DNA of 64,000 nt from a virus. Lineage: Duplodnaviria; Caudoviricetes. The notes under the pieces were generated by a model. It had not been told where the DNA came from and searched no databases. It saw only the letters and a program-made list of their open reading frames with translations. How positions within the stretch are numbered: position 1 is the first letter of the stretch; the number at the start of each line of letters is the position of its first letter. Below are positions 2,435 to 55,422 of this stretch, piece by piece. Made by a program: the position numbers and the translations under genes. Location: positions 10,261 to 74,260 of the IMG/VR virus record IMGVR_UViG_3300044259_000056. One strand, given 5' to 3'.

Positions 2435-4970
2435 GTGACAGATGTTAAAACTAAGAGGACTTATAGAAAGAAATCTTCTTATTGGGAGGAGAGAAAATCT
2501 TCAGTAAGTCCTCAGTCTATAGAAAAAGCCAGTAACATGGATATGTCTACCTCAAGGTTAAGGTTGGGTGAAATTGGTTCTACTGCACTTTCAACAATTA
2601 AGTTGTACGCAGATTGGAGAAAACCTTATGATCTAAAATGGCCTGAGTGCATTAGAACCTATAATGAAATGGAGTATGATGACGATGTAGCAACAGCATT
2701 GGATGCAAGTTACACATTCGTAGAAAGGGCATTTGTTGAACCAGAAGTAGTTTATAATAAAGAATCAGAAGTCTCTATTGAGGCAGCAAGATTTTTAAAG
2801 TGGTGCCTTAATAACATGGACGACGGTATGACATTACGCTCTGCTGTTCGTTCAGCTATCACTTTTAAAAAGTATGGTTTTAGTGTCCTAGAGAAGTGTT
2901 ATACTCAAGTTACTTCTGGTGAATATGCTGGGATGTATAAGTTGCAGAAGTTAGCAACTAGGCCACAAGAAACACTGAATAAAGCAAACCCATATGTGTA
3001 TTCAGATGATGGCAGGACAGTTATTGGTATTATTCAGTCTATAAATGCAGTATCATCTACAAATGCAATAATCCCTGCATCTATTGTTGGTGATAGGTTT
3101 TTACCAAGGAAAAAATTACTTATTTTTGGTTATAACTCCACAGATTCAAATCCTTTCGGTGTTTCTCCTTTAGCTAGTATATATCAAGATTGGAAAGAAA
3201 AAGTTCTTATATCAGACTATGAAGTTGTTGGTGTTAGTAAGGACTTGGGTGGTAAACTAAGAGCTGCCTCCCTTTAATAAAACTTCCTTAACTGCTGGAA
3301 ACCCCTAAAGCTTGATTGTTCATTTCATCTATGTTACATTAAGAATGAAATAAAACAATCGAGATGCAACAATGGGCAATCAGCAGCGAAGTTCTGCTGA
3401 TCCTTGGATGAGGATCATATGAAGATAGAAATAGAAAGTAGTGGATATTATATAACAGATTCTGGAGAGGTTTATAGCAGACGTGGTAATAAACTATGTC
3501 CTGTTCTTAACCATAAAGGATATTTGACGGTTAAAATATTTTACGAAAAGGGTAAATATAAGACTAAGTTTGTTCATAGACTAGTTGCAGAAGCTTTTAT
3601 TGAAAATCCTAATAATTTGGAAACAGTCAACCATAAAAATGGTGTAAAAACAGATAATACTAAAGACAATTTAGAATGGATGAGTAGATTAGACAACACC
3701 AAACATGCAGCAAATGTATTACAGGCTCAAAAAGGTGACAAAGCAACTAATTTGACAATAAACTCTGATATAGCTAGGGAAATTTGTAAACTACTAGAGA
3801 AAGATATGCGTAATATTGATATATCTGTTCTATTAAATGTCCCCAAAAATATTGTTAGAGATATCAGAATAAGAAAAACTTGGACTCATTTATCCAAAGA
3901 ATATAAGTTTTCTATTTCAAAACATGCAAGAAATGTTAAAACTTCTAGCAGAAAATGTTCAACGACTATCGAAAGCATAGGTTAAATGAGAGATAAATAG
4001 ATTATCTTTTATTATAACTAAAGAAGCAAGTAGAGTACAGCCAAGTGGTAGGTTGCCATAGTGGAATGGCTATGGTTATAAAACCCTTTAAATGGAAACA
4101 GGAAGCATCTCTTTGAGATGAAGATATAGTCTGATCTGCATGGAAACATGCAGCAGCTTGAATAAAGCGGGGAGGGATTAACGAACCCTCCTGAACATTA
4201 TGATGCCTGTCCTTGGTGTTCCAAAAGATATCATAAATAAAGCAGCAGCAAATCCCGGTGGCGAAGAAGCTAAATCCTTGTATGTATTAGAACAAAATTT
4301 AGCTAATCTTCATGCAGGGGAACAAGCATATATTATGCTACCATCTGATCCATTTGATAATACACAAGTAAAAGAATATTCTATAGAATTTAAAGGAATT
4401 TCAGGTAGCGGTAAACAGTTTGATACTGGAAAACTTATAGAACGTAGAACTAAGGCTATTTATAATAGACTTGGTGCAGGATTCTTAATAACAGGGGATT
4501 CTGGGTCTGGTTCTTATGCATTAAGTGATAATAAACAAACTTTCCATAGTCATACTATTGAACGTGATATTGACATTACTCTAGAAGTCCTTAATAAAGA
4601 ACTAGTTCCACAGTTGCTAGCTTTGAATGGAATATATCTTGAGGATAAAGATATGCCAAAGATAAAAGCTGGAACTGTTGGTGATCCTGATGTAGAAGCT
4701 AATTCTAAGATGATTCAGCGTGTAGTTAGTGTTGGTGCTGTTCCAATGGTTCCAGAAGTTATTAATGAGTTTTTAGAAAAACTTGGATTAAGTTACAGGC
4801 TACCTGTTGATATTATCTCGGATGAGAAAGCTTATCAAGACTTTGTTAGTAAATATCTTCCTGCAAATGTCTCAAGGGCAGGCGATGGGATGAGTAAACC
4901 GGGGAATGGTACATCAAACTCTGTAGCGTCAACAGATAATTCATCTTTAAATTTGGATAATGCCTCTTGA
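2435..4970 (+). CDS. Portal protein, spliced; exons 2435-3253 and 4203-4970 (~528 aa)
   Basis: Position between terL and protease; the join gives VSKDLGG|MPVLGVP; portal-like motifs (NPFGVSPL, GSYALS). Confidence 0.9.
3280..3385 (+). repeat. 106-bp block, 101/106 identical to 15465-15570
   Basis: Direct comparison (portal intron 5' core vs tape-measure intron 2 5' core). Confidence 0.92.
3419..3985 (+). CDS. Intron-encoded HNH homing endonuclease (HNH_3 / I-HmuI-like)
   Basis: VHRLVAEAF..VNHKNGVKTDN..NLEW; SD GAGGA before ATG 3419; C-terminal HTH-like module. Confidence 0.9.
   Translation: MKIEIESSGYYITDSGEVYSRRGNKLCPVLNHKGYLTVKIFYEKGKYKTKFVHRLVAEAFIENPNNLETVNHKNGVKTDNTKDNLEWMSRLDNTKHAANVLQAQKGDKATNLTINSDIAREICKLLEKDMRNIDISVLLNVPKNIVRDIRIRKTWTHLSKEYKFSISKHARNVKTSSRKCSTTIESIG
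3958..4136 (+). repeat. 179-bp block identical to 15181-15359
   Basis: Direct base-by-base comparison (portal intron vs tape-measure intron 1). Confidence 0.95.
4121..4202 (+). repeat. 82-bp block identical to 16439-16520
   Basis: Direct comparison (portal intron 3' end vs tape-measure intron 2 3' end). Confidence 0.95.
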
Positions 4971-10150: not shown

Positions 10151-10549
10151 TTGATAAATCTCAAAGAATATGAAGCACGTCATAGAGAGTTTATAAAAAA
10201 TTCTGGAGATATCTTTGAAAATGGATATTCATCTTATGTAGTTTATGAAGCTTTCACAATTCAAGCGTGTTCTCTCCAACCAGAAACAGGTTATACATTA
10301 AACACTATACCGGAAGGGTATAGGACAAAAGGTGTCTACTCTTTCTGGACAACAACACCAGTCAGGACGTTAGAACAAGGAACTGACCAGCTCTCAGATC
10401 AAATAAAAATAAATGGACAATGGTTCTCTATCCTAAGATCACAACCTTGGGTAGAATCTGATTTTTTACCTCACTATGATTGTATAGCAGTAAGAGAAGA
10501 CCAAAATAATTCCCCCACTCAATCACCAGAAGGTGGCAACTTTGGCTAA
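10151..10549 (+). CDS. Head-closure protein
   Basis: SLQP..LNTIPEGYR..YSFWT..DQIKING.WF..W..HY motifs; synteny. Confidence 0.65.
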   Translation: MINLKEYEARHREFIKNSGDIFENGYSSYVVYEAFTIQACSLQPETGYTLNTIPEGYRTKGVYSFWTTTPVRTLEQGTDQLSDQIKINGQWFSILRSQPWVESDFLPHYDCIAVREDQNNSPTQSPEGGNFG

Positions 10550-13897: not shown

Positions 13898-13933
13898 ATG
13901 GTTAGGTATCAACAAATCTCTACGGAGGGTGTA

Positions 13934-16900
13934 TTGGCAATTAATTTTGATGCTGCCATTATTAAAAATAAAGTGGTATATACAACAGACCTCTCATCAC
14001 TTAAAAAAGTAATGGCGGATATTAGGAAGGTTCAACAGTCAGCATCTAAATCTGTTTTAGCTTCCTCAACAATAAAACAATCAAGACAACAAGCTGAACA
14101 GACAAAACGTTGGGCATCAGAAACAATGGATGCACATGTTAAAGCTATGAACGAAGTAAGAAAATCAAAGGCATCTCAATTTCAGAAGTCATCTCAAGAT
14201 TATTTCAATGACTTATTTGGCATAGGTAAGAAAACAAAATCTGCCAGAGAGTCTGGTTATGCTTTTTTAGAACAGTTTCAGGCACAAGATGCCGCAGCAA
14301 ATGAAATAAGGAAAAGGCAAAAAGAATCTTTGAGAAGACAGACAGCAGACCAGAAGAAAATAGATGAAGCTAATATTAAAGCAACAGAAGATAGACTAAG
14401 AAGAAAAGATGTAGCGAGTTCTAAGCAATCTTTTTTTGGTTTTGAATTAGGAAAAACAAGACTCGGTGTTGATGATATGCGAGCCTATACAACACAAATG
14501 AGAAACTTATCTCAGGAGTATGTATCAGGGAGTATGTCTGTCAGACAATATAATGAATCAACACGACAATTACTTTCTACTGCAAGACAACAGAGTAAAG
14601 AGTCATTAACACTTAAAGAAAGGTTAATGAGTATTCGTGGAGAAATGGTTCTCTTTGGTGTAACTGCTGGATTTGTTATTAAAGATGTTGTAGATACAGG
14701 AAAACAATTTCAACAATTAAATTTATCTTTTGATACAGCATTTGGTAAAGATAAAGGCGAGGCAATGGATTTTGTTCGCTCAGAGGCTGATAGATTAGGT
14801 ATGAGTGTCCTTGGTGTTAGTAAGAACTATGCTCGGTTAGCTTATGGTGCTAAGTTAATGGGCATGTCACAATCAGATGTTCAGATGGGATTCTCTGGGA
14901 TATCTGAAGCAGCAACTGCTTGGGGTCTATCAAATGAGCAAGTTCAAGGGACATTTAAAGCATTTACAGATATGATCTCAAAAGGCACAGTCCAGTTAGA
15001 GGAGCTTAATGTTAGGTTCCTGAAACTTCTTTAATTGTCGGGGAAATCTTGAAAGGTATTGACTACTCTCTCTACATAGTGATATAGTAGAAAAACTCTT
15101 GGTAATGCAAGAGCTATAGTAAAAACGTCAATAATAGAGATAATCCGCAGGTAAGGTTCTTTATTTCATAAAGAACAAACTTCAACGACTATCGAAAGCA
15201 TAGGTTAAATGAGAGATAAATAGATTATCTTTTATTATAACTAAAGAAGCAAGTAGAGTACAGCCAAGTGGTAGGTTGCCATAGTGGAATGGCTATGGTT
15301 ATAAAACCCTTTAAATGGAAACAGGAAGCATCTCTTTGAGATGAAGATATAGTCTGATCCTCATATGAGAATATGAGCAGACACAAGGAAGTGTCTGTTT
15401 GTGTTTAACGAACACAAAAAACATCGGTGAAAACAACAACTCGGTTATACTATTAGCTGAGTATAAACTTCCTTAACTGCTGGAAACCCCTAAAGCTTGA
15501 TTGTTTATTTTCTATATGTTATATTAAGAATGAAATAAAACAATCGAGATGCAACAATGGGCAATCAGCAACTAAGCATCTCTCCAGAAAAGAAAGTAAG
15601 GAGAAAATATGGAATATGAAAATCTAAGCAAAAACTATAAAGTGACATCTTGTGGTTTAGTCTTTTCTTTAAGAAGAAATAAATATCTGAAGCAGTCAAT
15701 ATTTGGTGGGTATAATATAGTAAATATTGGCAAGAAGAACTATTTTGTTCATAGACTAGTTGCTATAACTTATATACCAAATCCAAGTAATCTTCCTTGT
15801 GTTAATCATAAAGATGGAAATAAGCTAAATAACCATGTAGATAACCTTGAGTGGTGCACAAGTGGATACAATCAATGTCATGCATATTTAACTGGACTAA
15901 AAAGGTTACCAAAAGGTGAAATGAATGGAAGAAGCGTTTTAACAGATTCTGAAGTTCTAAGTGTCTACGATGATCTTATGTCTGGGGCAAGAGTTAAAGA
16001 TATTTCAGAGATCTATGGTGTAGGAAAAAGCACTATAATGTCTATTAAGAAAAAAGAGTCATGGCAGCACTTATTAAAAGATAAACCAGATATAAAAATA
16101 AAGAAAAAGACACAAACCTTATCTGAAAATACTGTTATATGGATTTGTAAACAGTTGTCAGAAAATAAGACAGTTAAATGGATTTTTGATAACTGTCATA
16201 AGAATGTTACAATTAATCAAATACAAGATATAAAGAGAAGGCATTGTTTTTGTAAGATAAGTAAAGATTTCATATGGTGATGAAAGCTCAACGACTATCG
16301 AAAGCATAACTTAGGTCTTAGCCTGAGTGAGTAAGCAAGTAGAGTAGCGCCAAGTGGTAGGTGATTAAAGTGGAATGACTTTAATTATAAAACCCTTTAA
16401 AGCAAAATGGGAAGAGGTGTATAACAGATTATGCACTTAAGATATAGTCTGATCTGCATGGAAACATGCAGCAGCTTGAATAAAGCGGGGAGGGATTAAC
16501 GAACCCTCCTGAACATTATGGATCGTATGCCGGATGCAATGGCTGTGTTTGCTAAAGCATTAGACCCAGAGTCTTATGCAAAAAATCCACAGAAAGCCAT
16601 TGAAAAAATGCAAGAGACTATTAAGAAAGGTAATCTCAAGTCTCTTGAAACATTACCTAAAGTATTTAAAGTATTCCATGAAATATATGGCCCACAAGCT
16701 GAAAAAGCTATGTATGGTGTCACTCAACAACAGAACAGATTCAATAATACATTAAATGATTTCAAAAATATAATCTTTCAGTCTGGTTTAGCAAATGCAA
16801 CAGTTAGGTTATTTGGTGCACTAAACAATTTCTTGAAAGGTTCTAAGCCCTTAGCTGCATTTTTAGGTGGTATTGCACAAGGTTTTGCAGATTTACTTTA

Positions 16901-26357: not shown

Positions 26358-27110
26358 TCAGAACGGGATGTCATCATCCCAATCTCCTCTAGGTTCATCT
26401 GGTAGAGAAGAGACTTCATTTTCTTTTTTAGGAGTATCGTCTTTCTTAATTTCCCCTTTTACAGCTTTAATACTGAAAGGGACAACATTATCTAGGTAAT
26501 TATTAACAAAGTCTTCCACTTCTTGAAGGTCTTTCACATACATTGCCGCTACAGCCAGAGATTGCCCCACTGTTTGACCAATTTCATACTCTGTAAGTTC
26601 TTGGTGTTTATTTGTAAAGTTCTCCTTAACTTTTTTAGCAAGAGCTGCAAAAAACACCATTGTACCTTCAATTGTTTTTTGATCAGGCAGTTTCCCCTTA
26701 AAGAAATTAAATGCGCATGTTCGCACATTTCCTGCTTCTACCCCTGTTGTATCTTTCTTCCCACCAGATTTTTGACCCTGTTGTTGAACACTCTGATTAG
26801 CTGTTCTATTTGGCTGAGGGTGAGACTCCTGTTCTGGTGATTTCTCAATAACTGTTAAATCACTTTTCTTGGCATTTTTATATTTACCATCATCCTCATA
26901 TTTCAAGAAAATACTATCCCCCACTTTCACATCATAATACCCTTTACCTTCCTTAATAGTAAATGTTTCTCGTTTACCTCCACCAAATCCTACCCATGAA
27001 TCATCATCTAATTGAAGACTCAGACGAAAAAGATTCTGAAATTTGTCTGGTTCTGGCAATGCTTTTGCAAAGACACGTTTTACCTTACCTTGAAATGTTT
27101 TAATAGTCAT
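26358..27110 (-). CDS. Single-stranded DNA-binding protein
   Basis: OB-fold-like N-terminus and acidic C-terminal tail WDDDIPF; GGAG SD before ATG 27110. Confidence 0.7.
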   Translation of the reverse strand: MTIKTFQGKVKRVFAKALPEPDKFQNLFRLSLQLDDDSWVGFGGGKRETFTIKEGKGYYDVKVGDSIFLKYEDDGKYKNAKKSDLTVIEKSPEQESHPQPNRTANQSVQQQGQKSGGKKDTTGVEAGNVRTCAFNFFKGKLPDQKTIEGTMVFFAALAKKVKENFTNKHQELTEYEIGQTVGQSLAVAAMYVKDLQEVEDFVNNYLDNVVPFSIKAVKGEIKKDDTPKKENEVSSLPDEPRGDWDDDIPF

Positions 27111-27126
27111 ATTTATACTCTCCTGT

Positions 27127-28752
27127 TTAGTGAATCTCTGAATATTTTTTACCAAATTGTACGTCTACATCTAATTTACGTCTTAAATTGAATTCTTTAT
27201 TTACATCTTCTACTGCCCCTTTTATCAATGATTTAAATTCAGATTTAAATTTTTCTGTATCTTTAAAACTAAACATTACTTCATCATGCATCTGCAATTG
27301 TATTTTATTTACCCCGAATTTCTCTTTTTGTCTCCGTAGGATGTGTTTCAACCACATATCAAAGAAATAACTTCCTGAACCCTGACAGAGTGTTGAGAAC
27401 ACATCTTTTTTAGCTCTGATTGCATACATAAAACCATTGATAGGGTTAACTAACCAGAGTTTGTGTAAATTATTATAACCTTCTTCAGAAGGGAATTCAA
27501 CTAAAAATTGTTCTTCTGCAATTGCCTGAACAGACCAGTTAAGTTTCCAATATGATTCATGTAATAACTTACCTGTCGTTAAATCTACCCCAGCAGTCTG
27601 AGAGATTTTAGGTGCCCCGGCCCCGTACACAGCACTGTAGTTGCAATTACCAGTAATTGTTAGAACATTCCCTTGTCTAATAAGGAAATTGCCATTTTCT
27701 GTTATAAGGCAAAAAACATCTGTATCTCTAGTATATTGTTTTCTTAGACGCTGACAAGTAATATGTGGCCTACCCTGTGCACTAATTTGCATATTACTTT
27801 TACTCTTATAGCTAACAGTAGTGTTTTTCCCTGTTAAGTGTAAAGCCAATTGAATGGCATCATAAACCCTACCAAGATTTTGATAAATAATTAAAGATTT
27901 TTTACTCTTACCTTTTTCACTAGTCAATCCATCTGCTTTCCAAAAAGCATCAATAAAAGAGTGAAGAGATTCTGTATTTAGACTACAAATCCATTGGGTA
28001 TAATCAATCTCATGTTTACTCTTTAAAGGAAGTCCAACAGATTTAATAAAATTTCTTGCGTCTACTGAAGGTATTGTTAAAGAAAGAACACCATTGCTTG
28101 CCGTTATTTTATCTTCACGATAAGTTAGGTTTAGTTTTTCTAATAATTCTTTTATTTCATTTAAATATTTTTTTGGTGACTGAGCTATTGACATTCTAAC
28201 ATACTGCCGTTGTCCCATTTTGCCTTGAGAAGTTTTCTTAGTCAACTTTGAAACATGCAGATACCCATCAGATAAAATCCAACCTAATAAACGTGCTTGA
28301 TCTGGTGAAACAGAACTATCACCACCAATATACTCTCCTGTTGTAATAATATTCATATCAGAATTAACTTTATCAGTTTCTTCATAAAAAGTTTTTACCC
28401 AAGGATTAGACTTAGTTCTTACACGTTTATCCACCAACCATTTATGATTACCAGTTGACTCTACACACCATGAACGGTGTGAAAGTGTCTTTACAGGTTG
28501 ACATTCATAAAAAACTTTATCTAAGACTTTACACCAAACTTGTTTACGTTCCTTATTCAAGGACATAACATATTCACCAGACTTGATCTCATTAAAACTC
28601 TTCCAGCCATCTTGGGTTAAGACTTCAGTGTTATCAACAGGCAAACAAGATTTACCTAATTTTCTTGCTGAAGATATTCTTTCAATTATCTTCTTTTGTT
28701 CTTCTGGTGGCAATGCTTTCATTTCTTCAAAACTTAAACCTCTTTTATTCAT
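27127..28752 (-). CDS. DNA polymerase family A, C-terminal part (motifs B and C), intein-containing
   Basis: RKLGKS|intein|CNYSAVYGAG; QMHDEV; start ATG 28752 or GTG 28758. Confidence 0.92.
   Translation of the reverse strand: MNKRGLSFEEMKALPPEEQKKIIERISSARKLGKSCLPVDNTEVLTQDGWKSFNEIKSGEYVMSLNKERKQVWCKVLDKVFYECQPVKTLSHRSWCVESTGNHKWLVDKRVRTKSNPWVKTFYEETDKVNSDMNIITTGEYIGGDSSVSPDQARLLGWILSDGYLHVSKLTKKTSQGKMGQRQYVRMSIAQSPKKYLNEIKELLEKLNLTYREDKITASNGVLSLTIPSVDARNFIKSVGLPLKSKHEIDYTQWICSLNTESLHSFIDAFWKADGLTSEKGKSKKSLIIYQNLGRVYDAIQLALHLTGKNTTVSYKSKSNMQISAQGRPHITCQRLRKQYTRDTDVFCLITENGNFLIRQGNVLTITGNCNYSAVYGAGAPKISQTAGVDLTTGKLLHESYWKLNWSVQAIAEEQFLVEFPSEEGYNNLHKLWLVNPINGFMYAIRAKKDVFSTLCQGSGSYFFDMWLKHILRRQKEKFGVNKIQLQMHDEVMFSFKDTEKFKSEFKSLIKGAVEDVNKEFNLRRKLDVDVQFGKKYSEIH
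27646..28647 (-). mobile_element. Intein (334 aa) with LAGLIDADG-type endonuclease in polymerase motif B
   Basis: Starts CLPVDNTEVLT, ends ITGN, Cys at +1; LLGWILSDG and FWKADG blocks. Confidence 0.93.
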
Positions 28753-28786
28753 ATGCACTCTTCTCTATAAATAGACCAAGAAACTG

Positions 28787-30451
28787 TTAATGGTTCTTCT
28801 TATACCATTTATAAAACATCTCTTCATCCTCTGTAATAAATTCAGCAGTAACAGCCATTTTAGTGTGAGGATCATAGTCATCAGCCATCATGGTTTCAAC
28901 ATATTTTGGATCATGTGCTAACATAAAATGGTGTTTAGTCCTGTCTTCAAGTGAGGACATGTCAGAACCACATAATGTATAACCCTTTTCTGAAATAAAT
29001 GACCCACGAATTTCTTCCCCACCTATTTTATCAACACCAACAAGGTTTACAACATTTCGATGTTTTACCCTTAAGGTGTTGGTTAACCCACCAATAGAAG
29101 CTTTAATTCTACCTTTATCATCCATATCCCTTAGTAAGCCTTTAATCACACCTAGGCGATGTTTATAAAGGTTTAAGTTAGAATAGAGGGCAATCTCTGG
29201 AACATCTTCAGCAAGCTTTTCTACACTCTGACAGAGGACTTTGCCGTCTTCTCCACTTATAGTAACTTGTGGGACTTGTCTGGCAATTGGCCTTTCAGGT
29301 TTTGTTCCCCTTCTGCACCCAAGTGCCTTCCATCTTTTCATGTCATCTTGCCAAGCTTGTTCAGCCTCTTTATCTTTTACCTCTTTAAAAGTCTCAGGAA
29401 TCCAACCATGTGAATATAAGAAATTTTTTATTTGTTCTGGTGAGTTTGCATTTGGGTCTTCATAGTTAGTCAGAACTAAAAACTCTTCAATTTCGTCAAC
29501 CTCACGACAGCGCATTTCACCATTAATCTCAACTAGAGGTTCACTCTTTCCTAGTAAAACTCTGGCTGTTCCAACATCATCTTTTGTTGATGACTGATAT
29601 TGTTGTTTAAGTAGCTCCCAAGTTTTACCAGCTTCTGTATACTCACCATTTTGTTTAAAATACTTTTTAGGTTTAGTCTTCTTAGAGTATTTTGGTATTT
29701 TTGGCATAACAGATTCTAATTTATCTTTTAATTCTTTAACTTTATCAGCAAAAAATTTCTCACTGTTATCTAAATGTTCTTTATCCAAAAGGATACCAAT
29801 ATCTTCCTGAATTCTATATGTATCTAACTTAAACATTAAGAAAGATAAAAATCTTTCAATATGTTGGTCTACAGACAAACCTTTTAAAGAGTCTATATAG
29901 AGTTCTTCATTTGGGCTAATTCTTTTTCCACCAACTAATCCAGCATCTATTGCTTCCTTAGATTGGGTGTACATTAAGGTAAGTCTATTCTTGAAGTCTT
30001 CCCAAAGAGCTTTATTTATCTTTACATCTTCTTGACAACGATGTTTATATTCTTCATAGGAAAGATTTTTCCAGTCCTCCACCTTTGGTTTTTCAATACC
30101 ATAATCTTCATGAAAAGAGTCTAAACCATGTTGACTTCTTGTTGTATTAAGGTACCAACTTAAAGCTAATGTATCTATCACCATTAAGTTTGACAAATTC
30201 ATAGAAGTTATTTTTTCTAAGGCCGGAACATCAAACAGAATAAAATTATGACCAACAATAGGGATTTCATTCTCTATGTGCCAACTTAACATATTTTTTA
30301 TTCTTTCAATATCCGCACCATCAATAGAGGAAGGGGAAGATTTCCCTTCCATTTGAAAACTCACAACATGGCATTTTGTCAGTTCATTTAGGAGGCCGTC
30401 TGTTTCAATATCTGAGACAGTCCCCTTCCTCCAATTTTTTATTAACTTCAT
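28787..30451 (-). CDS. DNA polymerase family A, N-terminal part (3'-5' exonuclease through motif A)
   Basis: DIETDG, GHNFILFD, CQEDV exonuclease motifs; TNTLRVKH; GSDMSSLEDR motif A; ends YDPH...KKNH then stop. Confidence 0.92.
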   Translation of the reverse strand: MKLIKNWRKGTVSDIETDGLLNELTKCHVVSFQMEGKSSPSSIDGADIERIKNMLSWHIENEIPIVGHNFILFDVPALEKITSMNLSNLMVIDTLALSWYLNTTRSQHGLDSFHEDYGIEKPKVEDWKNLSYEEYKHRCQEDVKINKALWEDFKNRLTLMYTQSKEAIDAGLVGGKRISPNEELYIDSLKGLSVDQHIERFLSFLMFKLDTYRIQEDIGILLDKEHLDNSEKFFADKVKELKDKLESVMPKIPKYSKKTKPKKYFKQNGEYTEAGKTWELLKQQYQSSTKDDVGTARVLLGKSEPLVEINGEMRCREVDEIEEFLVLTNYEDPNANSPEQIKNFLYSHGWIPETFKEVKDKEAEQAWQDDMKRWKALGCRRGTKPERPIARQVPQVTISGEDGKVLCQSVEKLAEDVPEIALYSNLNLYKHRLGVIKGLLRDMDDKGRIKASIGGLTNTLRVKHRNVVNLVGVDKIGGEEIRGSFISEKGYTLCGSDMSSLEDRTKHHFMLAHDPKYVETMMADDYDPHTKMAVTAEFITEDEEMFYKWYKKNH

Positions 30452-30481
30452 TTGTCCTCCTTAAAGGTGCAACCACAGTAT

Positions 30482-33214
30482 TTAATTAGGCTGTGGTTTT
30501 CCTGAAAAGTAATCATCTAAATCATGACATTTAGCTTTATCAAACTCATAATACCACTTACCCGCAGGGCCAGTCTTACCACCACGACATTTTGGCAAAT
30601 CAACTTCAGTTGTGTTCTTCTCAATCAGGTCATCAGAAAGTTTATCCCGGTTAAGAACAATGTTGTAAGCAGCAGATTGAACAAAACTCCCTGTGCCTAG
30701 GGTATCATACTCAGTAACTTTACGGGGCTTACCTTCAGCGTTCTGAGGTGGTTTACGGGTATGTTGTACATTTACTGTTGTCACACCATTTTTAGCCATA
30801 TTTCTTTGAAAATTCATATGGTCTTCCGCATGTTCTTCACTGCTGCCACGCAATAAATCAGATAATACATCAATAACAAAGAGGCGGCTATCATGTTTTC
30901 TAAACAACATTTCCAACTCTTTTTCTAGATCTTTGATATTACCAGATCGTTCATCAAGAATATAAAATCTTGGTTGCCCATTCTCTTTATAACATAAACT
31001 CTGTTTAATTCTTTGTCCTTCTTCTGTCTTGAGGAAATCTTTAATTTCTTCACTAGACATTTTCCATAGCATATTCATTTCAAGATGGATAGATAACATC
31101 TCTAACATATATTGAGCAGCAGTTGCTTCAAGGCTAACAATAGTAGGAGTAACAGGACTGTTAAATATCCAATGATAAACCATTCTATTCACATGTGTAC
31201 TTTTGCCACAAGAAGTGTCAGCAATAATATTTAGGATTCTGCCTTGGATAATTCCACCACCCATCATATCTTGCATTTTATGCATATAAGCCGGTAATGT
31301 GATACGGGGTTTAGAGAGTTCTTCCTCAATCTCATCAAAACCATCAGCAGCACTTTTCACACCTTCTGGAACATAAGGCTTTGCTGCCCAGAAATCATTT
31401 ATAAATTCTTGCTCTTTATGCAATAATTTCTTTGTGTCATTATCATAGATATATGCATTTGGGTCTTTATAGCGCATTTTCATGACAAAAACTTTTCCTT
31501 TCGGAAGAACTTCATAAATCTTTTCAGCAGCCTCACGTCCTGCTGCATCACTATCCATTGCAACTACAATTTTTTTAAATTGATTAATAAAATCATAGTT
31601 ATTTTGAAGCTGTTTGTATACAGAAGTCTCCCCTGTTGTCCCACTCACAACAGCAATAGGGTCATAGTTTTTGTTTCTCTGTGCATCAGAAAGCATTTGA
31701 TATGCTGCTAGTTGATCTGAGTTACCACAAACTACAACCTTATTATTACGACGAACTAGTAGTTGTCCGTTGGGAACGGTAGCGCAATAAACAAACCCTG
31801 AATAATTTTCTGTTGTTATCTCTACACTCTGAAATGAGGCTGTTTTCTTTGCAAAGGAGATTTTTACTGCGTACCATTCACCTAGGTCATTATTTCTTTT
31901 TCTAACAGAAGCATGGTATCCACTGAGAACAGCAATAGATTGCACTAGGTCTGCTTCATTTTTAAGTTTAGAGTTGAACTCAATACTGTTGCGATCTTTT
32001 ACTAAATTTCCATCCCAATGAACAATCTCTTTCAAAAAGAGGTCTCTTTGCCTAGAATTAAAATCTTTTAACCAAGAATCTGGCAATCCTTTTTTAGTAC
32101 ACCAAGGTTCTAAAGTTACATTGAAAGTATGATAAGAACCTTTAATCCAGTGTTGGTGGTCTTCCTTACTGTATTCAGTGTAATTCATTTTTAAATCATC
32201 TAAAATATTTTTTAGACGTTTAATTTTTCTTTCTTTTTTGAAAGAAAAATGTGCAACTGCTTTACCACTCACCTTATAATCTACTTTAGCATCAGCAGAG
32301 AGTGCAATAATAAACTTAATCTGGTCATCTGTTAAATTAGAGCCTGCAAAAGTATCCTCAAGTTCTGTTGTTTTCCTGAATAGATTAGCTTTAGAAGTTC
32401 CTTCTCCCGCATTGAAGTAAAAATCTTTATTAGTTTTTGGTCTTACTCCTACCATCTTATGATTTGGTGTTACTAACAAAGAGATTTGATTACTCTTAAA
32501 ACTAACCAGATCACCAGAATATTCTTTTTTAATAAGACGGCTAGGTTTCACCCAAGAGGATTTACCCTCTTTCACTTGAAGCACTAAGGTTTTATTATCT
32601 AACTCTGAAAATAATTTAAAACCTTCTTGCGTCATCACCTCTGTTTGATCATCATAACATTCCCCACCAACTAGTAACAAAGTGTTGGTGAAAGTTTTAA
32701 ATCGAAATTGACCAAATAAATCACAATCTTTGCCAGTCTCTCCAATTGGGCCGGGGCTTTTAAAATTCTTTGGATGTGTTCGCTGCTTATAGCCTGAAAT
32801 CTCATAATTCTTAGTTGTTGGATAAAGAGTCCCACAGACTTCTCCGTCTGTTTCATTATACTTATATCTTACACCAAAAAACTTGGAAATTTCTTGTTTA
32901 ATCCCACGATAACCTTTTGGGTCAAGTCCCGTTTGTTCCTTTAATTTCTTATGCACCTCTTCATTAAATTCTGAACCCACAATTTCCTCTTCTTCAAAAT
33001 CTTTATTGTTATCAATAATCCATTGTTCGTCAGGATAGGTATAACCACAGGAGAAACAATATGCTCCTTTATGCAAACCATCTGAATCTAAACCATAGAC
33101 CATGAGATTATCATTGTTTTGGTCAAGACCTTTTGACTGGCATTTAGGGCAACCAATATGCCCTTCTACTGATAGGTCTACCATAGTCCCAAAAAGATTC
33201 TTTGTCTTACCCAA
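30482..33214 (-). CDS. Primase-helicase (T7 gp4-like), intein-containing
   Basis: CPKC/CFSC zinc finger; Toprim MDSDAAG; helicase ADTSCGKST, VIDVLS, GSFVQSA. Confidence 0.92.
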   Translation of the reverse strand: MGKTKNLFGTMVDLSVEGHIGCPKCQSKGLDQNNDNLMVYGLDSDGLHKGAYCFSCGYTYPDEQWIIDNNKDFEEEEIVGSEFNEEVHKKLKEQTGLDPKGYRGIKQEISKFFGVRYKYNETDGEVCGTLYPTTKNYEISGYKQRTHPKNFKSPGPIGETGKDCDLFGQFRFKTFTNTLLLVGGECYDDQTEVMTQEGFKLFSELDNKTLVLQVKEGKSSWVKPSRLIKKEYSGDLVSFKSNQISLLVTPNHKMVGVRPKTNKDFYFNAGEGTSKANLFRKTTELEDTFAGSNLTDDQIKFIIALSADAKVDYKVSGKAVAHFSFKKERKIKRLKNILDDLKMNYTEYSKEDHQHWIKGSYHTFNVTLEPWCTKKGLPDSWLKDFNSRQRDLFLKEIVHWDGNLVKDRNSIEFNSKLKNEADLVQSIAVLSGYHASVRKRNNDLGEWYAVKISFAKKTASFQSVEITTENYSGFVYCATVPNGQLLVRRNNKVVVCGNSDQLAAYQMLSDAQRNKNYDPIAVVSGTTGETSVYKQLQNNYDFINQFKKIVVAMDSDAAGREAAEKIYEVLPKGKVFVMKMRYKDPNAYIYDNDTKKLLHKEQEFINDFWAAKPYVPEGVKSAADGFDEIEEELSKPRITLPAYMHKMQDMMGGGIIQGRILNIIADTSCGKSTHVNRMVYHWIFNSPVTPTIVSLEATAAQYMLEMLSIHLEMNMLWKMSSEEIKDFLKTEEGQRIKQSLCYKENGQPRFYILDERSGNIKDLEKELEMLFRKHDSRLFVIDVLSDLLRGSSEEHAEDHMNFQRNMAKNGVTTVNVQHTRKPPQNAEGKPRKVTEYDTLGTGSFVQSAAYNIVLNRDKLSDDLIEKNTTEVDLPKCRGGKTGPAGKWYYEFDKAKCHDLDDYFSGKPQPN
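31721..32659 (-). mobile_element. Intein (313 aa) with degenerate LAGLIDADG-type endonuclease in the Toprim domain
   Basis: LVGGE|CYDDQTEV ... VVCGN|SDQLAAYQ; EIVHWDG block. Confidence 0.92.
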
Positions 33215-54114: not shown

Positions 54115-55422
54115 ATGAAAGAGTTTGAGAACAACCTGTGGTTTTCAACAATAAGGAAATCCAACAAGAATATTAATAAACTAACACTCTCTATTCTAAC
54201 CCTATCAGATAGTGGTTACTTCAAGAAGGCAAGTAGTATCTCACAGTTCGAGTGCTACATTGCAAATCTAGCCTATGCTTACTGTTCAGGTGTAAGAAGA
54301 TTGTATGTTAACAGAAAGAAATCATTTTATAGTGAAAAGAAAATTTTTAATACACAGATTGTTAAGACTAAAATTGGTTATGCTTGTGCAAGAAAAGCTG
54401 AAGAGTTGCTTTGTTACTTAGAATTGATTACTTCACACAAAGGGGCTAGAGTACAAGGAAAGAGAAAGGTTCTTCATGAAGACCATGGTTACATAGAAAT
54501 AACTGATAAACTAGTTGACTTAATCAATAAACACAAAGCATTTATAAAGTTTGAGGATAGTGTGATTGAAGTGACAGATAAGACTGGAAAACGGTTAACA
54601 ACAGAAGGTGTAAATATGATTATTTGTTTCAGCACGATTAAGAAAATGTTATCTTACAATAACTTTATAGATACATTTGAAATTATTGATGAAGAAGGTG
54701 TTCCATTGAATGCTTGGTTGTGTCGGAAATTCAGAGATAACCTTGAACTTCATGGTAGAGTGTATAATATTCATCCCGGAAAGAATTATCAACAACAAAG
54801 TCCTGTCTCAAGAAAGAAAATACTAATTGATGGTGAACCTACTGTTGAATTAGACTACTCTTCTCTTCATTGTTCTCTTCTTTATGAATCAAAAGGATTA
54901 GCTTGTCTGGATAAATCAGACCTTTACACAATAAATCTTAACCATTTATTTGATGTTGTAGAAGAAACTGTTAACAATTCCTTTTACTTGACAATGAGCA
55001 GGAAGTTGGTCAAAGCTGCTTTCGTTCGTGCAATCAACTGTGACTCAAAAGAGGATGCTGTTAAATCTCTCATGTTACTGATTCAAGAGGATTTACAGAA
55101 AGATTTCATGGAGAAAGAATTTAAGTTCCTAAAAGTGTTGACTCAAGATGATGTTTGGGGTATCTTTGTTGCATTGGAAGACAAACATAGTCTAATTTGT
55201 GAAATGTTCTATCAGAAGATTGGTTTATTCTTAATGAATCTTGATAGCAATATCCTGATGAAAGTCTTAGAGTCTTGTGAAGAACAAGGGATATGTGCAT
55301 TACCTATTCATGATAGTGTTATTGTTCCTGAAAGTCTGAAAGAACAAGCAATGGATATTATGATGAAGTGTTACTGTGATGTTATGGGAAGTAATAATAA
55401 CTGTGTTGTTAAACAAAAATGA
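54115..55422 (+). CDS. PolA / T7-RNAP-fold polymerase without exonuclease (TV-Pol-like)
   Basis: HGRVY; ELDYSSLH (motif A); K-x-A-x4-IN (motif B-like); LPIHDSVIV (motif C). Confidence 0.75.
   Translation: MKEFENNLWFSTIRKSNKNINKLTLSILTLSDSGYFKKASSISQFECYIANLAYAYCSGVRRLYVNRKKSFYSEKKIFNTQIVKTKIGYACARKAEELLCYLELITSHKGARVQGKRKVLHEDHGYIEITDKLVDLINKHKAFIKFEDSVIEVTDKTGKRLTTEGVNMIICFSTIKKMLSYNNFIDTFEIIDEEGVPLNAWLCRKFRDNLELHGRVYNIHPGKNYQQQSPVSRKKILIDGEPTVELDYSSLHCSLLYESKGLACLDKSDLYTINLNHLFDVVEETVNNSFYLTMSRKLVKAAFVRAINCDSKEDAVKSLMLLIQEDLQKDFMEKEFKFLKVLTQDDVWGIFVALEDKHSLICEMFYQKIGLFLMNLDSNILMKVLESCEEQGICALPIHDSVIVPESLKEQAMDIMMKCYCDVMGSNNNCVVKQK

Follow-up and report, generated by a model that had tools for sequence, protein, structure and literature searches.

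A split family-A DNA polymerase gene in a phage genome as the probable footprint of a lost HNH-AP2 homing endonuclease

Does a phage whose DNA polymerase gene is broken by a stop codon and 34 nucleotides (nt), with matching CAT codons before the stop and before the downstream start, read across the gap, or does it build its polymerase from two polypeptides? The question is raised by the family-A polymerase gene (PolA) in 64,000 nt of a virus of the Caudoviricetes (Duplodnaviria), positions 10,261 to 74,260 of IMG/VR record IMGVR_UViG_3300044259_000056, a 74-kilobase (kb) virus contig with an estimated completeness of 50%. We call this whole stretch the window, and all coordinates refer to it. 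An earlier note, made from the sequence alone, had proposed a ribosomal bypass resembling that of T4 gene 60, and had named a genuine two-subunit PolA or indel errors as alternatives. Our analysis favours, with a probability of about 0.87, a natural two-subunit family-A polymerase that would have arisen from a MobA-like mobile cassette and would later have lost the endonuclease of that cassette.

The broken gene consists of the following parts (aa, amino acids; ORF, open reading frame).

28787..30451, minus strand: N half of PolA, 554 aa, with 3'-5' exonuclease, thumb and palm motif A, ending in ITEDEEMFYKWYKKNH and the stop (from the ORF list).
28753..28786, minus strand: spacer of 34 nt from the N-half stop to the C-half ATG, with a weak hairpin and the purine tract AGAGAAGAG (from the sequence and its fold).
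27127..28752, minus strand: precursor of the C half, 541 aa from the ATG, with an N-terminal extension, motif B interrupted by an intein, and motif C (from the ORF list).
27646..28647, minus strand: LAGLIDADG intein of 334 aa in motif B (..RKLGKS / C..ITGN / CNYSAVYG), with bounds taken from the intein-free polymerase of phage FBKp34 and a match to Pfam LAGLIDADG_3.

The signature of a family-A DNA polymerase is complete and in order across both halves (exonuclease domain, DMSSLEDR, RKLGKS..NYSAVYG, QMHDE), and the break falls between motifs A and B, as the earlier note had it. The N half covers positions 74-194 of the Pfam DNA_pol_A profile and carries motif A (CGSDMSSLEDR) at residue 494; its residues 1-548 have 74% identity to Pol I of Klebsiella phage FBKp34, a contiguous enzyme, and its last 30 residues read ..AEFITEDEEMFYKWYKKNH. 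The C half, which lies in the +1 frame relative to the N half, covers DNA_pol_A positions 212-380 in addition to LAGLIDADG_3, has 69.5% identity to FBKp34 Pol I over residues 369-541, and is expected to begin with the peptide MNKRGLSFEEMK.

On the minus strand the junction has the sequence that had been described, AAC CAT TAA followed at a distance by CAT ATG. The upstream side reads GAG ATG TTT TAT AAA TGG TAT AAG AAG AAC CAT (28792-28790) TAA (28789-28787), and then come the 31 nt cagtttcttggtctatttatagagaagagtg, the second CAT (28755-28753), and ATG (28752-28750) AAT AAA AGA GGT. In the frame of the C half a TAG stands five codons before ATG 28752, leaving an open stretch of only 4 codons. 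The -1 frame had been taken to be open across the gap; this third frame does read EEPLTVSWSIYREECI, but it contains TAA at codon 3 and also TGA. A single +1 or -1 frameshift was discarded as a way to join the halves, given the TAG of the C frame and the TAA and TGA of the third.

The nearest polymerases (71-74% identity) are contiguous 738-aa proteins without intein, including that of FBKp34 (74%) and several metagenome proteins; the contiguous set as a whole comprises FBKp34, 05F01, L004, L130 and dozens of proteins of 712-738 aa. In the N half, homology to the unsplit enzymes ends at ..FYK. Across the break region the nearest contiguous polymerases read ..FITEQEMQDYKAGIKLPHVVKGRKLGKSTNYSAVYG, with neither the tail nor the head described below, and at the position of the tail contiguous forms have ..EEFKKGNK.. 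or ..QDYKAGIK...

About 25 among the 120 best homologues are of another kind. These proteins of 524-549 aa (~50% identity) span the whole N half, stop at the same position, and share the tail ..ITEDEMEFYKWYK[KTSA][NQ][HQKN] before the stop, approximately EFYKWYKxNH, where the window has MFYKWYKKNH. A scan of IMG/VR added the split alleles L165 and L192, the latter only 36% identical overall and with the same tail. Among 80 related IMG/VR loci only L165, L192 and L200 are split, and all three carry an endonuclease.

We examined 11 split loci (L008, L009, which is the L200 contig, L010, L128, L129, the P0029 contig, L165, L192, L210, L211 and L212). In all 11 an ORF of 158-190 aa lies between the tail and the C half; nine of these ORFs have HNH_3 and/or AP2 entries in the gene tables, and hmmscan confirmed both domains in five. 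The start codon of this endonuclease (ATG or GTG) is embedded in the K-W codons of the tail (AA ATG GTA CAA.., giving MVQ(E/S/D)E..), and the ORF runs out of frame, overlapping the N half by 19-22 nt and the C half by -4 to 56 nt (8 loci with coordinates). The separate C half of these relatives, 190-200 aa long, starts 429-549 nt after the N-half stop and follows the pattern M..L[ST][LF]EEMKxLPxxxQKxII..ARKxGK[ST], after which comes motif B. In L008, L009, L128, L129, L192 and L200 it is in the frame of the N half, and the distance from the N-half stop to motif B (519-609 nt) is always a multiple of 3. The split and its conservation are directly observed, as is the endonuclease in the relatives. 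The recurrence of the same break, tail and C-half start around an endonuclease gene supports the alternative of a two-subunit PolA starting at ATG 28752.

An Rfam scan at the gathering threshold, covering the window and seven relatives, detected no group I intron where the gene is split. Since a whole endonuclease gene lies between stop and start and no intron was found, the polymerase halves of the relatives must be separate proteins. For the break of the window, splicing by an intron of group I or by a split intein was likewise set aside: there is no Rfam match, tail and head lack a Hint or intein domain, the only intein is inside the C half, and the 34-nt gap is too short for an intron. As for cultured phages, each of the best listed matches to a split-type C half is annotated as one polymerase feature, most of these matches start past the split-specific head, and none of those listed is a split example. 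A tblastn search with the 24-aa tail peptide gave no match in cultured phages, the query being too short to be informative, and a word-based protein search with the first 40 C-half residues against shorter proteins returned nothing.

Both ends at the break of the window carry the extensions of the split alleles.

28787..28807, minus strand: C-terminal extension of the N half, WYKKNH and TAA, encoded by the cassette; the tail recurs in ~25 N halves.
28666..28752, minus strand: N-terminal extension of the C half, MNKRGLSFEEMKALPPEEQKKIIERISSA, encoded by the cassette; the head is present in all split C halves and not in contiguous polymerases.

The head of the window, MNKRGLSFEEMKALPPEEQKKIIERISSARKLGKS, is identical to that of L211 at 23 of 35 positions, and the C halves of L008 and L211 start at the position of ATG 28752. 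When the two halves are compared by tblastn with the unsplit polymerase of Pseudomonas phage KIL2, their matches overlap by 17 codons, from which it follows that the head carries a diverged second copy (LSFEEMKAL, an ITxEEMxx helix) of the helix that precedes the break (ITEDEEMFY). The polymerase backbone of the window groups with the unsplit FBKp34-like enzymes at the 71-74% identity given above, whereas the backbones of the split alleles are at most 55% identical to it and yet have a nearly identical tail and head. A backbone of the unsplit type combined with a tail and head of the split type points to horizontal transfer of the junction, and no mobile agent other than the endonuclease was seen.

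The endonuclease gene itself is missing at the split of the window, where 34 nt separate the halves, and two traces of it may be recognised.

28800..28808, minus strand: dead endonuclease start ATG GTA TAA, inside the K-W-Y-K codons; the ORF of the relatives starts at that ATG/GTG.
28745..28780, minus strand: probable 3' remnant of the endonuclease (AP2 tail), CTT GGT CTA TTT ATA GAG AAG AGT GCA TAT GAA TAA, which reads LGLFIEKSAYE and stop.

At the dead start the third codon is TAA where L128 has CAA, and this C-to-T change is synonymous (TAC to TAT) in the frame of the polymerase. The remnant overlaps the start of the C half. Read on past the stop in the frame of the N half, the spacer gives Q F L G L F I E K S A Y E and a stop, a peptide that aligns with the AP2 ends HLGLFEDIEEARLVYE of L211 and HLGLFDTAEEASKAYE of L008; in both of these relatives the C-half ATG lies within the (V/A)YE codons. 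In local alignments the 13-residue spacer peptide has its best match at residues 138-153 in each of the four type-1 endonucleases (in L128 only the LGLF core, at 139-142), shortly ahead of the C-half start or across it. This is the colinear position, with the same frame relation as in the relatives. The best match of the 34-nt spacer DNA in the whole 7.6-kb L008 locus is also the AP2-tail site. Aligning the junction DNA globally, with gaps tolerated, against loci that carry the endonuclease returned only meaningless fragments. An endonuclease N terminus in the third frame (SWSIYREEC against YGFTKEEF) was considered and dropped for the AP2-tail reading. These matches suggest that the spacer descends from the AP2 tail of the endonuclease, an origin that the earlier note had not considered.

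The second CAT of the window lies within GCA TAT GAA. The identical GCATATGAA occurs in L008, where 432 nt of the endonuclease gene precede it. This CAT is probably part of the A-Y codons (GCA TAT) of the lost endonuclease, inherited rather than selected. The +1 offset of the C half fits a later deletion whose length was not a multiple of three.

The arrangement is found in more than one assembly. Two 45.9-kb contigs from two sediment runs, with depths of 44x and 52x, match the window exactly from 27000 to 30600; they may come from the source samples, and hence are not independent. Another study (an aquatic metagenome, run X3) yielded a 411-nt contig that covers 28612-29018 with 14 substitutions (~3% divergence) and zero indels, and is unchanged between 28676 and 28864. 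In this strain 12 of the 14 altered codons are synonymous (three of three in the C half, nine of 11 in the N half). Since the X3 strain has no indel and its changes are mostly synonymous, the split arrangement is inherited and both halves, which are intact, are under purifying selection.

From the sequences compared we infer the history of the deletion, the start site used, the single transcript and the assembly of the subunits as follows. A mobile cassette would have entered the polymerase gene of an ancestor, in the part of the fingers loop that directly precedes the O-helix (motif B). This cassette would have consisted of a free-standing HNH+AP2 endonuclease flanked by a tail with its stop (WYKKNH and stop) and by a new start with the head MNKRGLSFEEMKALPPEEQKKIIERISSA. 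In the lineage of the window a later deletion would have removed ~400-500 nt of the endonuclease gene, leaving behind the dead start ATG GTA TAA, probably the last ~11 endonuclease codons, and the 34-nt spacer. Both halves would now be on one transcript, with the N half terminating at TAA 28787-28789 and the C half initiated separately at ATG 28752 via AGAGAAGAG, 5 nt upstream, perhaps aided by ribosomes that have just terminated 34 nt upstream. The C half would then splice out its 334-aa intein to yield a 207-aa subunit, and the two polypeptides would come together around a single active site, to which the N half contributes motif A and the C half motifs B and C.

A single transcript is likely because no terminator-like site was found between the halves and promoter-like matches there are at chance level. 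Genes of the window have GGAG, GAGG or AGAGG Shine-Dalgarno tracts 5-9 nt before their ATG, and the tract of the C half, AGAGAAGAG, ends 5 nt before ATG 28752, a normal spacing for this genome; GTG 28758, further upstream, is not spaced in this way. The hairpin of the gap would pair this Shine-Dalgarno tract with sequence 7 nt past the stop, and one may speculate that terminating ribosomes open it and so couple the two halves.

Several results weigh against such a two-subunit enzyme of cassette origin. The tract of the C half has no GG core, and most others of this genome are stronger. By score only, the match of the remnant has p ~0.02-0.16 overall and ~0.04-0.16 in the peptide alignments; when six-frame fragments were scored with a profile hidden Markov model built from five endonucleases, the 13-aa remnant was not ranked, and colinear DNA similarity of the spacer was top-ranked in only one of ten relatives tested (L008). 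No other endonuclease-free split allele was found in IMG/VR, where a stricter pattern gave 0 matches and a looser, non-specific one no true match among the loci inspected with it. Matched codons, a stop after the take-off codon and a GAG 7 nt before the landing codon, as a bypass would have them, are all present. Finally, two separate polypeptides are most likely in the phage of the window, and we infer them from sequence only.

The split could also be ancestral and short-gapped, with the endonuclease invading afterwards. The weak score of the similarity between spacer and endonuclease speaks for this order of events, and the same question is open for gp43 of phages 25 and 44RR (PMC2988022). 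However, the junction is shared across diverged backbones, and hence was transferred horizontally; all 11 other split alleles have the endonuclease; the endonuclease start codon lies within the tail codons, with a stop at codon 3 in the window; and the LGLF..AYE remnant is at the expected place and in the expected frame. We consider a split that preceded the endonuclease very unlikely.

Slightly less likely again is a dead gene, in which deletion of the endonuclease shifted the frame so that the C half is translated poorly or not at all, while another polymerase replicates the phage. The frame relation is indeed altered, +1 in the window against the same frame in six of six scorable endonuclease-bearing alleles, the deletion also took sequence that may have driven C-half translation, the remaining Shine-Dalgarno tract is weak, and only about half of the phage genome is covered. 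Yet the halves are open over 554 and 541 codons, the intein as well as motifs B and C are intact, the ~3% diverged strain keeps the arrangement with its predominantly synonymous codon changes, and the phage reaches a depth of 44-52x in two samples. The ORF at 54115-55422 (plus strand) has no Pfam match at an E value of 0.01 or better.

The bypass that had first drawn attention to this locus would have peptidyl-tRNA-His leave CAU 28792-28790, slide 37 nt and re-pair with CAU 28755-28753, giving a fused ..KKNH-MNKRG... In cassettes of the gene 60 type the take-off codon matches the landing codon or is its wobble equivalent, is followed by a stop or a rare codon, and lies in a stable, conserved stem-loop (usually with a tetraloop); a mini Shine-Dalgarno sequence (GAG/GGG/GGA/AGG) precedes the landing codon by 5-7 nt, the gap is AU-rich, and the nascent peptide provides a further signal. 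The junction resembles the 50-nt hop of T4 gene 60 in its matched CAT codons, which are present as described, in the stop, the GAG purine tract and the AU-rich gap, and in lying in an endonuclease-invaded phage replication gene. Cassettes of that kind also travel with gene-splitting endonuclease elements elsewhere (bioRxiv 10.1101/2022.08.31.505936), and no single frameshift joins the halves here, so that a hop would be the only route to a fusion.

The junction differs from gene 60 in that these features are not kept in homologous alleles. Across eight alleles with the endonuclease, the C start is preceded by CAT, CAA, AAA, TGC, TTT, TAA, TAT or TGA, and the N half ends on the sense codon CAC, CAG, CAA, AAT or CAT; a His/His pair occurs only in L008, where the two codons are 432 nt apart. 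The second CAT falls in the probable AYE codons of the lost endonuclease, and an estimate from base composition puts the chance of a CAT among the 4 open codons before the ATG at ~2-7%. The earlier note had cautioned that CATATG arises easily by chance; the codon match does not go beyond chance, and the CAT is also shared with L008.

The fold described for the gap (UUCUUGG UCUA UUUA UAGA G AAGAG) is the minimum-free-energy fold, but a weak one, with -4.4 kcal/mol and z = -0.3; 68 of 200 shuffled sequences fold as well, and a 76-nt context gives z +0.1. This hairpin begins past the stop and excludes the CAU take-off codon. The GAG lies 7 nt before the second CAT, and the same tract AGAGAAGAG would serve as the Shine-Dalgarno sequence of ATG 28752. 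The TAA after the take-off CAT is also the N-half stop, at the stop position of the homologues. The last 30 N-half residues are unrelated to the described gp60 extension, whether or not they act as a nascent-peptide signal. The gap of the window lies between split halves and not within one ORF as in gene 60, its landing codon abuts the conserved start of an independently translated C half, and the loop of a fused product would be 25 aa longer than in any contiguous relative. A programmed bypass is not supported by these data, and we give it very little credence. The same slight chance attaches to a bypass born from the scar and outside the gene 60 family, in which some ribosomes would hop from CAU to CAU and make a fused polymerase beside the two-subunit form; if true, it would be a bypass site newly arisen from an endonuclease scar.

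Two indels in a contiguous gene, introduced by sequencing or assembly, are refuted as the cause of the break. In favour of such errors, the contig was assembled from a metagenome and most of the gap is open in the third frame. Against them, an independent contig of another study bridges the site without an indel, the stop is exactly where ~25 homologues share their end, and the third-frame reading has TAA at codon 3 and matches no contiguous polymerase.

The two-subunit polymerase proposed here has its closest parallel in design in MobA, which splits the large subunit of T4-type topoisomerase II into genes 39 and 60 (bioRxiv 10.1101/2022.08.31.505936; PMC2988022). MobA elements encode C- and N-terminal extensions, have out-of-frame overlaps and carry a 'homR' copy (Manning and Atkins, bioRxiv 10.1101/2022.08.31.505936), and some MobA clades have lost the endonuclease and kept the split, a course called 'hit and run' (bioRxiv 10.1101/2022.08.31.505936). 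In both systems a free-standing endonuclease of the HNH family is inserted in an essential replication gene of diverged hosts, the upstream half receives an in-frame tail and stop, the downstream half receives a start and a head with a diverged host copy, the endonuclease ORF overlaps both halves out of frame, and some lineages are endonuclease-free. The second copy LSFEEMKAL in the head of the window parallels the 'homR' of MobA. The host gene, however, is here a family-A DNA polymerase, split in the loop before motif B; the endonuclease is HNH_3 + AP2 and has 158-190 aa against 269-279 aa in MobA; the extensions are 6 and ~29 aa long against ~44 each; and there is no bypass cassette inside the downstream ORF. 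The likeness is one of design.

In host function the closest case is gp43A/43B of Aeromonas phages 25 and 44RR, a split family-B polymerase whose halves co-purify and are active (PMC2988022). It too is a phage replicative polymerase encoded by two adjacent ORFs, which are separated by a homing endonuclease gene in phage 25 and by a short untranslated intercistronic spacer in 44RR (PMC2988022). It differs in polymerase family, in its seg-type (GIY-YIG) endonuclease and in its break point. Whether the endonuclease caused the split has been left open for gp43, whereas the distribution found here favours the endonuclease as the cause. In phage Aeh1, nrdA is split by mobE and the two polypeptides reassemble into an active enzyme (PMC2988022, PMC7344957); this is likewise an HNH endonuclease insertion without splicing, but in another host gene and with the endonuclease still present.

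We found no description of an HNH-AP2 cassette of family-A polymerases in the searchable literature. What looked like an attractive candidate for recoding would be the footprint of a selfish element, a widespread cassette in which an HNH-AP2 homing endonuclease cuts family-A phage polymerases into two subunits just before the O-helix. Such a cassette would bring its own stop, start and short terminal extensions, in close parallel to T4 MobA. The allele of the window is the only endonuclease-free one seen, which suggests that a split polymerase can persist under selection without the agent that caused the split. For annotation, both ORFs would best be named subunits of one polymerase, and not pseudogene, frameshift or bypass. 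The short tail and head are candidate contacts that may hold a split Pol I-type enzyme together.

The replication module of this phage is heavily parasitised. The intein of the C half, which the earlier note had not recognised, lies 35 codons downstream of the split. Pseudomonas phage KIL2 has the same intein at this site (47% identity), in a polymerase that is contiguous. Its penultimate residue in the window is G (..TGN/C) and not the usual H. The primase-helicase gene (30482..33214) contains at 31721-32659 (minus strand) an intein-like insert of 313 aa (..GGE/CYDDQ...VVCGN/SDQ), which is not in the 599-aa homologue of FBKp34; the primase-helicase of KIL2 is also annotated as a two-piece join.

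Elsewhere in the window, a group I intron (RF00028, 60.9 bits, E value 1e-12, full model) lies at 14997-15377 on the plus strand, at the end of the ORF 13898..15034. Two plus-strand ORFs, at 15609-16280 and 3404-3985, match the HNH part of the profile of the cassette endonuclease (E values 5e-7 and 2e-3), and so HNH endonucleases of a related type appear to be intact elsewhere in the genome. An identical 25-nt stretch, ggattaacgaaccctcctgaacatt, occurs at 4175-4199 and 16493-16517 (plus strand), directly before the ATGs at 4200 and 16518.

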